Assembly (NCBI RefSeq): GCF_013167455.1
Contig: NZ_CP038328.1
DNA from: Escherichia coli O157:H7
GTDB taxonomy: Bacteria; Pseudomonadota; Gammaproteobacteria; Enterobacterales; Enterobacteriaceae
Length of the DNA stretch: 64,000 nt
Strand: one strand, 5' to 3'
Made by a program: the position numbers. Numbering within the stretch: position 1 is the stretch's first letter; every line of letters begins with the position of its first letter. This document shows, in pieces, positions 12,101-15,100 of the stretch.

Positions 12101-15100
12101 ATCATTGGCGGTTCCTAATGGCAAAATTCCCAGCGCGGGTATGTCATCCCCCTCACACTGAATCAACGCCGTAGAAACTTCATTAATGGTGCCATCGCCA
12201 CCACCGGCAATCACCGTTGCGACGCCCAACTTCCGGGCCTCCTCTACATATCGTGCGGCATCGCCTTTCTCCCAGGTGACCCGCACATGGATCGTCATTC
12301 CTTCCTCACGCAACAGCATAATTGCTTCGCGCAAGGGTAGATTGTCAGTACTTTTGCCATTAAGAATCAGTAAGCTGGCGGGAAATTCTGCCATGATCGT
12401 ATGTGCCTTTATGATTGGTCTATAGATAGTGTAGAGCAGAAAAGAAAAGGTGGAGTCAGAACAGGATGAAAGTCGGAGGATAAATAGTCAGTTCAAGTAT
12501 GGAGGATTCAGTGGTTACCACCAGGAGCTTGCAATGGGGACAGCGAATACTAACGGCAGCCACCGATAAATTTCAAAAAAGAGCATATACCTAATATTCA
12601 ACTAAACAGTGGCTTCTTCAATATAATATATTAAAGCCTCCATGGAGTTACCCGGAAGGGCCTCCATGTCCGTAATTCCTACTTATGTAGGAAATGTTTT
12701 ACAGAACATTTATTATAATCCTATTCAATTATAATAATCATGCCATTATTATATTTAAACACTAGAGAGTGTCGTTGGTATTTAATGGGGGAAGGTGAGA
12801 TGAAAAAGATAGCTGCTATATCATTAATTAGTGTTTTTCTTATGTCTGGTTGTGCTGTGCATAATGATGAGACAAGTATCGGTAAATTTGGTCTTGCATA
12901 TAAAAGTAATATTCAGCGTAAACTCGATAACCAATACTACACCGAAGCCGAAGCTTCTTTAGCCAGGGGCAGAATATCTGGTGCAGAAAATATAGTAAAA
13001 AATGATGCAGCCCATTTCTGTGTTACTCAGGGCAAAAAAATGCAGATAGTTGACCTGAAGACAGAAGGTGCAGGATTACATGGCGTCGCTCGTCTGACAT
13101 TCAAATGTGGAGAGTGAGAATATTTTTTGGTAAGCGTCAAACATGCGCGTTCTGGTTGTGCTTAGCCGGAACCTGTGCGAGCACGATGCCGTTACGTGAA
13201 AGGCATCGTGCTATGAAGGGAGATTCTATCGATGTGGTCAATGGAAGACGGTTATCAGGGATAGGGCTTATGCATAAAAAATAAGCCCGTGTAAGGGAGA
13301 TTACACAGGCTAAGGAGGTGGTTCCTGGTACAGCTAGCATTTTATGGGTTATGTTTTTCAGCGAAACGGATGATAACCTTAATAAATGCAGCTGTATGTG
13401 ATCGGTTTCTAAGAATTTTCCATCCGGGAAAAATAATCGAAATTAATCACTTACCGTGGGGGTTACGCGTAGTTTCCCCGGAGAAATTACGCATCAGCAG
13501 CGCGTAATTTAGCTCAAGATCCTGCGGCACCGGGAGCCACACAGTATAACCATCGCCTGGTGCTACCGGCATAGCTTCGCCTTTGGCGTTTTCCATGTGC
13601 TCAAGGGTAAAGTTAATGTTGCCTTGCGGCGTCATCAGCTCAAGGCTGTCGCCAACGGAGAATTTATTTTTCACCGCTACCGCCGCGAGGTCCCCCTTGC
13701 GCTCACCGGTAAACTCACCAACAAACTGCTGGCGGTCAGAAACTGAATAACCGTATTCGTAGTTCTGATAATCGTCGTGAGTATGACGACGCAGGAAACC
13801 TTCGGTATAGCCACGATGCGCCAGACCTTCCAGAGTTTCCAGCAGGCTGGTATCGAACGGTTTGCCCGCAGCGGCATCATCGATAGCTTTACGATAAACC
13901 TGTGCGGTGCGTGCGCAATAGTAGAAAGATTTAGTACGGCCTTCGATTTTCAGCGAATGCACGCCCATTTTGGTCAGGCGTTCTACATGGGCGATGGCGC
14001 GCAGATCTTTCGAGTTCATGATGTAAGTGCCGTGCTCATCTTCAAACGCGGTCATATACTCGCCCGGACGCTGGGCTTCTTCGATCATAAACACTTTGTC
14101 GGTTGGCGCGCCGATACCCAGCGTCGGCTCAACATTTTGCACCGGAATCGGCTCGTACTTGTGTACGATGTTGCCAACGTCATCTTCTTTCCCTTCCTGG
14201 ACGTTGTACTCCCAGCGGCAGGCGTTGGTGCAGGTACCCTGGTTCGGATCGCGCTTGTTGATATAGCCAGAGAGCAGGCAGCGACCGGAGTAGGCCATGC
14301 ACAGTGCGCCGTGAACGAAGATCTCGATCTCCATATCCGGCACCTGATTGCGGATCTCTTCAATCTCTTCCAGCGACAGCTCGCGAGAGAGGATCACGCG
14401 GGTCAGTCCCATTTGCTGCCAGAATTTCACCGTCGCCCAGTTCACGGCGTTAGCCTGTACCGAGAGATGGATCGGCATTTCAGGGAAGTGCTCACGCACC
14501 AGCATAATCAGCCCTGGATCGGACATAATCAGCGCATCCGGCCCCATTTCCACCACCGGTTTCAGGTCACGGATAAAGGTTTTCAGCTTGGCGTTGTGCG
14601 GTGCAATGTTGACCACGACATAAAACTTTTTCCCCAGCGCGTGGGCTTCATTGATGCCGAGCTGAAGGTTTTCGTGGTTGAATTCGTTGTTGCGCACACG
14701 CAGGGAGTAACGCGGCTGGCCCGCATAAACAGCATCTGCGCCATAAGCGAAAGCGTAACGCATATTTTTCAGCGTTCCCGCCGGGGAAAGGAGTTCCGGT
14801 TTAAACATAATTCTCTCGTTCTGATGACAGGTCAGATCCGCTTCACCTGATGAAGCGGTTAGGGGAGTGCCCCCACTTTAAGGGCGGGCATTGTAGCGCT
14901 GTAGGGGGGATCTGGTAAAGCGCCGGACGCCAACAACCCACGCCCGGCATCGTAATTACGTATTGTCTTTCACCGTCTGGCTTGTGCCATTGGCTTTAAC
15001 GGAGGCAATTCCGGTTTCACGAGATTGCGCGGTGGCATACATCTGGCTGGAGCCGATAATTTGATGATTGGCGGCTTTCAGATTGAAATAGAATTTGCCG

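Follow-up and report, generated by a model that had tools for sequence, protein, structure and literature searches.

The yegR gene of Escherichia coli O157:H7 lies between yegS and the gene of the small RNA (sRNA) CyaR, in the 64,000-nucleotide stretch of contig NZ_CP038328.1 (assembly GCF_013167455.1) that was analyzed here and is referred to below as the window. Positions 12476-13274 of the window, a segment of 799 bp with a GC content of 0.401, are probably the eroded remains of a P2-like (Peduovirus) prophage with yegR inside it, a gene that is presumably under the control of H-NS and EvgA. In the proposed course of events, a P2-like phage would have integrated site-specifically into the terminator of CyaR in an ancestor of E. 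coli, and internal deletions would then have taken all recognizable phage genes. On the left, the remains comprise a decayed attL core and a stub of the P' side. These are followed by about 0.6 kb in which yegR, its promoter and a hairpin downstream of the gene are found, and then by a relic P arm. The attR core on the right has stayed intact; it both ends CyaR transcription and still acts as the attB of P2. yegR itself probably arrived as phage cargo (a "moron"). H-NS on the AT-rich islet presumably keeps the gene silent by default, and activation of EvgS/EvgA by mild acid would turn its expression on.

yegR, the EvgA box, the H-NS site, CyaR and the P2 att site are already known. Added here are the exact limits of the islet, the two-armed P2-like relic with yegR inside it, and the distinction between two inverted repeats, one of which leads to EvgA while the other is dismissed. 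The reading as a relic is a modest addition: it contributes one more case to the known grounded prophages in which a gene has been domesticated, and does not overturn current understanding. It would nevertheless explain where an orphan gene found in nearly all E. coli comes from, namely a P2-like prophage of which one piece became fixed and domesticated. The locus would also illustrate how AT-rich DNA of foreign origin, presumably silenced by H-NS by default, can be taken into the regulon of a native two-component system, EvgAS.

Limits and Distribution of the Islet

An exact empty site was found in E69, a divergent genome labelled E. coli whose YegS is 94% identical. The empty junction is ...GAAAGTCG|TGGTAC|AAAAAAATAAGCCCG: E69 reads ...GATGAAAGTCG-TGGTAC-AAAAAAATAAGCCCGTGTAAGGGAGATT, and the window has ...GATGAAAGTCG (ending at 12475), then 799 bp, and then AAAAAATAAGCCCG... 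(starting at 13275). Because the empty site of E69 matches the window on either side, the acquired segment is 12476-13274. The ancestral spacer upstream of yegS (12395-12475), which makes up the first 81 bp of the yegS-yegR spacer, lies outside the acquired islet. It can be aligned up to ...GATGAAAGTCG with E69, E. albertii and, more loosely, Citrobacter, and has a GC content of 40.7%. On the other side, 13275-13446 is ancestral too and consists of the CyaR sRNA and its promoter, running rightwards from the att core.

The islet is missing not only from E69 but also from 120 CyaR loci of other Enterobacterales species, which were collected with a 25-base CyaR pattern. None of the 120 loci encodes a relative of YegR, and in those whose fetched stretch includes yegS, the start of this gene is usually situated ~100-450 bp from CyaR. 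Among complete E. coli genomes the islet is near-universal: it is present in 5,423 of 5,426, at least 80% of the region is carried by 5,334, and an empty site was found in none. The original prediction had proposed an AT-rich islet at 12395-13446, next to the P2 att site and possibly acquired horizontally. Acquisition beside the att site is borne out by the empty site of E69, by the lack of the segment in the 120 loci and by P2-type att arms at both ends (see below). The proposed interval holds as an AT-rich islet, but its margins, 12395-12475 and 13275-13446, are ancestral.

Two variants of the segment were noticed. In the E. coli strain FDAARGOS_1077, a 294-bp deletion corresponding to 12857-13150 of the window has taken most of yegR, making this strain a rare natural yegR-null. 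Many E. coli carry an extra AT-rich segment of 179 bp at ~13122, just past the yegR stop codon, which is not in the allele of the window and amounts to an indel polymorphism within the relic.

Remnants of the P2 Attachment Site

At its right end the islet adjoins a sequence that is identical to the attP core of P2, in agreement with the predicted neighborhood of an att site: 13275-13302 (plus strand) matches P2 24355-24382, which overlaps the annotated attP core, at 100%. This sequence is the attR of the relic and the present-day attB of P2, and it overlaps the CyaR terminator. The cyaR gene has been given as an insertion site of P2 (PMC3032704), and many E. coli genomes break at ~13302, owing to resident P2-like prophages. 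CyaR (RyeE) is encoded on the minus strand at 13279-13364 (Rfam RF00112, 100.7 bits versus a gathering score of 47, E = 4e-20; the match covers model positions 1-85 of 85), and in a terminator scan its 3' terminator hairpin coincides with the P2 att core. This sRNA gene had gone unmentioned in the original prediction, within whose interval it lies.

Directly to the left of the core, 13215-13274 (plus strand) is a relic of the P arm, as seen when it is aligned with three P2-type arms, those of P2, Peduovirus P22H4 and the ogrK remnant of K-12. It includes the first Int arm-type site, TCGATGTGGTCAATG (13229-13243, plus strand), which matches the first half of the annotated Int P-arm site of P2, and its IHF region is shorter by 16 nt. 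In a blastn comparison with P2 325-373, the P-arm relic reaches E = 0.005 without the core. The right end of strain AH01 corresponds to the P arm and core of P2 with E = 9e-16. If the segment is a prophage relic, the classical P2 attB at cyaR already bears relic arm sites of an older phage. As a corollary, the preferred site of P2 would be the attR of an older relative, and the relic Int and IHF arm sites might affect present-day P2 integration.

At the left end, a decayed, attL-like copy of the P2 att core, AAATAGTCAGTTCAAGTATGGAGGATT, is situated at 12482-12508 (plus strand), in register with the cores of E69 and E. albertii. It agrees with the P2 core at 17 of 27 positions. A match of this quality was reached in 78 of 20,000 shuffles when any offset within 60 nt was allowed, and in 14 of 20,000 (~0.0007) at the expected offsets of 0-10; in the window, at least 17 of 27 positions match the P2 core at only 4 of 127,948 positions. 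A first test of the attL core, which used local alignment with +1/-1 scoring, was not significant (1002/5000 shuffles) and was replaced by this full-length, in-register identity test and by comparison with AH01. Next to the core copy, 12509-12537 (plus strand) is the start of a P'-side relic (the Cox-site region), as revealed by a multiple alignment of P2, P22H4, the E. albertii attL, AH01 and the window.

Strain AH01 has a less-deleted allele, in which the core copy is better preserved and continuous with P'-side sequence of P2. AH01 1183-1312 aligns with P2 attP 401-532, comprising the core, the Cox sites and the P' arm, with 73.5% identity over 132 nt (E = 5e-20). Compared with this strain, the allele of the window has lost ~75 bp of the P' side, that is, the rest of it including the Int sites of the P' arm, as well as 179 bp right after the yegR stop codon and 16 bp of the P arm. 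The relic is thus bounded by an attL-like core on one side and by the P arm and attR on the other, and yegR therefore lies inside it.

Other Occupants of the cyaR Site

In E. albertii (NBRC 107761), a 3.4-kb insert with a GC content of 41% is located between yegS and CyaR and carries cdtC, cdtB and cdtA. On one side of the insert is an attL core (88% over 26 nt), whose P' flank is nearly identical to that of P2, and on the other are a P2-like P arm and attR. As in the yegR islet, cargo is kept between such att arms at the identical chromosomal position, but the cargo is a cytolethal distending toxin instead of a lipoprotein. The arms of the E. albertii islet are far less diverged from P2; the insertion, of about 3.4 kb, apparently took place independently and more recently.

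A younger layer, D'-ogrK, separates the yegR relic from CyaR in K-12. This cryptic P2 remnant at cyaR (D'/yegZ-ogrK, or "ogr-D'") has been described previously (PMC3032704). Both it and the yegR relic come from the same phage family and occupy the same att site, the CyaR terminator; in the K-12 remnant, too, deletions have left a few hundred bp, with the P arm and the attR core preserved. On the other hand, the K-12 remnant is younger and strain-specific, is situated to the right of the yegR islet and still has recognizable phage genes, whereas the yegR relic is of greater age, is essentially fixed in E. coli and retains relics of both arms but no phage gene. The cyaR site would thus have kept cargo repeatedly, yegR in E. 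coli, cdt in E. albertii and ogrK in K-12. In SCPM-O-B-8794 (labelled E. coli), the first 240 nt contain another P2-type P arm left of CyaR. It is preceded by sequence related to 13128-13185 of the window, which suggests another rearranged layer.

Origin of yegR

No similarity to phage genes (int, ogr, D and others) was detected within 12476-13274. For this reason the islet is a relic of arms and cargo only, and not a prophage in the usual sense. Several points weigh against the interpretation of the segment as a prophage relic with yegR as its cargo. Searches of 50,697 phage records by tblastn and blastn and a scan of IMG/VR found no intact phage or phage family with a yegR homologue, and because no genuine phage yegR was found, the gene is assigned the status of cargo by its position only. 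No recognizable remnant of int was detected by tblastn with the C-terminus of Int (E > 0.5). Support for the left arm is thin in the window, with a core of 17/27 and ~29 nt, and the strong statistics come from AH01. The attL core has ~50-60% identity, versus ~95% for the adjoining ancestral spacer. Simple in-place decay fails to explain this divergence, so a hybrid or heterologous core, or relaxed constraint, must be assumed. On the side of regulation, the operator consensus by which 12676-12693 is predicted to be the EvgA operator of yegR (see below) was validated on K-12 loci only.

The candidates for a phage-borne yegR were all rejected, as every match in the phage collection and in IMG/VR turned out to be the E. 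coli chromosomal flank beside a P2 prophage. PHROG 21109 matches YegR at 2e-72; it is probably an artefact of a prophage boundary and not a phage gene. Similarly, 80 "viral" contigs of IMG/VR start or stop at yegR, and the IMG/VR prophage calls begin at this gene because a full P2-like prophage occupies the site in many E. coli. Wherever a prophage caller sets the start of a P2 prophage at yegR, as in IMG/VR and PHROG 21109, it would be picking up the relic.

yegR could have reached its place without being phage cargo, if erosion had left only the two arms of the prophage and a later, unrelated event, such as illegitimate or homologous recombination with other mobile DNA, had placed yegR and its promoter between them. 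We consider this sequence of events unlikely. The genuine phage genomes searched yielded no yegR homologue, the central 0.6 kb is without similarity to P2, and family members elsewhere are chromosomal orphans or plasmid genes flanked by insertion sequences (ISs), all of which would be in keeping with a later insertion. However, two independent events would be required at one spot, and no IS ends or target duplications were found around yegR in the islet. Moreover, variable cargo is common in P2-like phages, and E. albertii keeps cdt between the same arms, which argues for yegR having come with the P2-like phage.

Presumed Control by EvgA and H-NS

Both inverted repeats of the original prediction, which had listed them as features of an AT-rich region, exist in the yegS-yegR spacer: TTCCTAC-N4-GTAGGAA at 12676-12693 (described there as cctac-N4-gtagg) and AAATGTT-N6-AACATTT at 12692-12711. 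The region contains eight perfect inverted repeats with arms of at least 7 nt, versus 0.72 ± 1.09 in dinucleotide shuffles, where 0 of 300 reach eight; several of the eight stem from TATAAT-rich low complexity.

The first repeat is an 18-bp palindrome, TTCCTACTTATGTAGGAA, and is predicted to be an EvgA box. The operator consensus of EvgA, which we take to be TTCYTACA-NN-TGTARGAA (Masuda and Church; Itou et al.), was validated on K-12 loci only: with at most two mismatches it matches upstream of safA, ydeP, emrK/evgA, frc and yfdX. The pattern TTCYTACANNTGTARGAA, again with at most two mismatches, has a single match in the 64 kb, versus 0.04 expected. The yegR box has one mismatch to the consensus, is situated 106 nt upstream of the ATG, and shows no variation among the E. 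coli alleles examined, even in the divergent AH01, while the bases around it differ. The EvgA-activated promoters of ydeP, safA-ydeO, yfdX, frc and emrKY, which belong to the acid-resistance regulon, have the same kind of 18-bp palindrome upstream, (T/A)(T/G)C(C/T)TACA-NN-TGTA(A/G)GA(A/T). Unlike the other boxes, the yegR box has T for A at position 8, and it is nearer to the start codon than most. Several other EvgA targets have an assigned function, unlike YegR. A review states that EvgA binds to the yegR promoter (PMC8147483), and yegR is co-induced with ydeO, yfdX and emrK (PMC5811628). No EvgA boxes were found upstream of the distant yegR homologues, implying that EvgA control is specific to Escherichia.

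The second repeat (12692-12711) overlaps the presumed -35 region. Most E. coli alleles show polymorphism in its spacer, and in AH01 its left arm is broken (AAATTCTGCACAAAACATTT); it is probably fortuitous and not a conserved operator. It is highly improbable that the repeats in general are terminators or chance palindromes of AT-rich DNA instead of operators. The terminator scan marked 12676-12693 as a weak hairpin with T-rich sequence after it, AT-rich DNA gives many short palindromes, and the second repeat is not conserved. Nevertheless, the first repeat fits an 18-bp motif common to five EvgA-controlled promoters, with 0.04 chance matches expected, and it is invariant amid varying flanks, upstream of yegR and downstream of no gene.

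With the first repeat as an EvgA operator, an EvgA dimer on 12676-12693 would be placed just upstream of a -10-like TATAAT at 12714-12719 (plus strand), 20 nt downstream of the box. This hexamer, read from the sequence, may belong to an EvgA-dependent promoter, for which it is the candidate; a second TATAAT is found in the same way at 12730-12735 (plus strand). Farther upstream, a consensus scan predicts a promoter-like TAAACA-18-TATATT at 12603-12632 (plus strand), and the same hexamers are listed for yegRZ in a paper on RpoD that used SELEX (systematic evolution of ligands by exponential enrichment; PMC3946193). Within the islet there is also a promoter-like TTTAAA-17-TATTAT on the minus strand (12759-12731), ~340 bp upstream of the yegS start, which the same paper assigned to yegS (PMC3946193). 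If it is used, transcription of yegS would start in foreign DNA.

An H-NS site in the yegR-yegS spacer has been reported by genomic SELEX (PMC3946193). The islet is acquired DNA with an AT content well above average, and contains two near-matches to the high-affinity motif of H-NS, TCGATAAATT; over the whole window, the count of this motif is not significant (7 versus 4.6). The islet may be silenced by H-NS, as the original prediction had suggested. At the other end of the gene, a stable hairpin with an 11-bp stem and no U-tract (13180-13212, plus strand; fold energy -25.5 kcal/mol, z = -3.6) is located downstream of yegR and may be its terminator. The stem is unchanged in K-12 and AH01 and the loop varies. 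The hairpin sits where P2 has the ogr terminator.

The YegR Lipoprotein

yegR is annotated at 12800-13117 (plus strand) and encodes a lipoprotein precursor of 105 aa. The signal peptide and lipobox read MKKIAAISLISVFLMSG-C18, with the lipobox MSGC ending in Cys18 and Ala at +2. Cys18 is invariant in the family, and Cys74 and Cys103 are invariant in the alignment; a disulfide probably links Cys74 and Cys103. YegR has been detected in the proteome of O157:H7 and given as a lipoprotein with the lipobox MSGC (PMC3210124). The pN/pS ratio (nonsynonymous to synonymous polymorphism) between yegR alleles is 0.07-0.34, and the gene is under purifying selection. Because of this ratio, the detection of the protein and a confident fold model, yegR is regarded as a real gene.

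Scans of YegR against NCBIfam and a copy of Pfam without the PF27694 model gave sub-threshold matches only (DUF333 with E = 0.095; lipoprotein signal-peptide models). The lipobox and the lack of a match in the scanned copies agree with the earlier description of YegR as a small lipoprotein that has no assigned function. Searches of the distant relatives against Pfam found nothing. The precomputed label PF27694 "YegR" is attached to all 83 homologues and to the distant ones, and a profile search of 1.84 billion representatives returned 66 clusters, indicating that PF27694 is a tiny family. In the model of AlphaFold2, the predicted local distance difference test (pLDDT) score is 81.9 overall, and most of residues 31-105 have a value of 86 or more. 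The model consists of four short strands, one helix and one hairpin, and has no convincing match to any solved or viral structure.

Close members of the family come almost all from E. coli or Shigella. Relatives with 44-66% identity are scattered over Serratia, Pseudomonas aeruginosa, Plesiomonas and Enterobacter and are also carried by plasmids, all in unrelated contexts. A relative that is 44% identical to YegR is found in near-identical form on 98 mostly IncF-type plasmids (65 of them predicted to be conjugative; the two examined are IncF-type) from Klebsiella, E. coli, Enterobacter and Citrobacter, where it is an orphan gene between IS elements. The YegR family is mobile, as its relatives are in unrelated, IS-rich or plasmid contexts. 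The remoter relatives are lipoproteins of 90-115 aa that have an ASPARGG...GA motif and both cysteines.

After export and lipidation on Cys18, the precursor would be directed to the outer membrane according to the Lol sorting rule, as it has Ala at +2 and no Asp. Based on this rule and on the context of the EvgA regulon, we favour YegR as an outer-membrane-anchored periplasmic protein that may have an envelope role in acid stress. A more specific history, in which YegR is a phage-derived outer-membrane lipoprotein that once shielded the lysogen by superinfection exclusion or receptor masking, like Llp, Cor and Bor, and was later captured by the acid-response circuit of EvgA, appears quite doubtful. 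Bor of lambda, Llp of T5 and Cor of phi80 and N15 are, like YegR, small lipoproteins, and are non-essential phage cargo expressed from the prophage state. They differ from YegR in that no similarity of sequence or fold to it was detected, and we know of no exclusion or serum-resistance phenotype for YegR.

Base Composition and Neighboring Genes

The order of genes around yegR is gatD-gatR, yegS, yegR, CyaR sRNA, yegQ, yegP, baeR and baeS, with yegS annotated at 11495-12394 and yegQ at 13447-14808, both on the minus strand. The region discussed here is 100% identical to E. coli strain 2017C-4109. As had been predicted, yegR and its flanks are AT-rich compared with their neighbors. The GC content of 12395-13446 is 0.397 (39.7%), versus 0.522 (52.2%) for the whole window, 0.498 for yegS and 0.540 for yegQ. 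Among 1052-bp windows this is essentially the lowest value (the fraction at or below it is 0.0002, or 0.02%). By segment, the GC content is 0.378 in the yegS-yegR spacer, 0.390 in yegR and 0.429 in the yegR-yegQ spacer. The GC content at third codon positions (GC3) is 0.286 for yegR, versus 0.592 ± 0.072 for the 46 long open reading frames (ORFs) of the window (z = -4.25), and its synonymous-codon log-likelihood gives z = -3.7 against the same ORFs. yegR is the lowest ORF of the window on both measures, and neither GC content nor codon usage falls within the normal range.

A view of the region as ancestral core DNA, AT-rich because it is a regulatory spacer with a short, lowly expressed gene and lost in other lineages, is largely refuted and scarcely credible. 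A high AT content is common in intergenic DNA and in short genes of weak expression, other low-GC patches occur in the window, and the ancestral spacer has 40.7% GC itself. But this view needs the segment to have been lost from every one of the ~120 Enterobacterales lineages sampled, with an empty site free of scars, leaves the P2 att arms at both ends unexplained, and has to accommodate a GC3 of yegR that is 4 standard deviations below the genes of the window.

Further low-GC stretches of the window are located at ~42150-43200, ~49600-51600 and ~6800-7800, and the lowest 300-bp windows (0.31-0.32 GC) are near 42600-42720. A REP-like (repetitive extragenic palindromic) hairpin is situated between gatR and yegS at 11426-11461 (plus strand), where the naRNA4 match is sub-threshold (36.1 bits versus a gathering score of 59.5). 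gatR is intact at 10634-11413 (plus strand, 259 aa), and in K-12 this gene is interrupted by an IS3 element.

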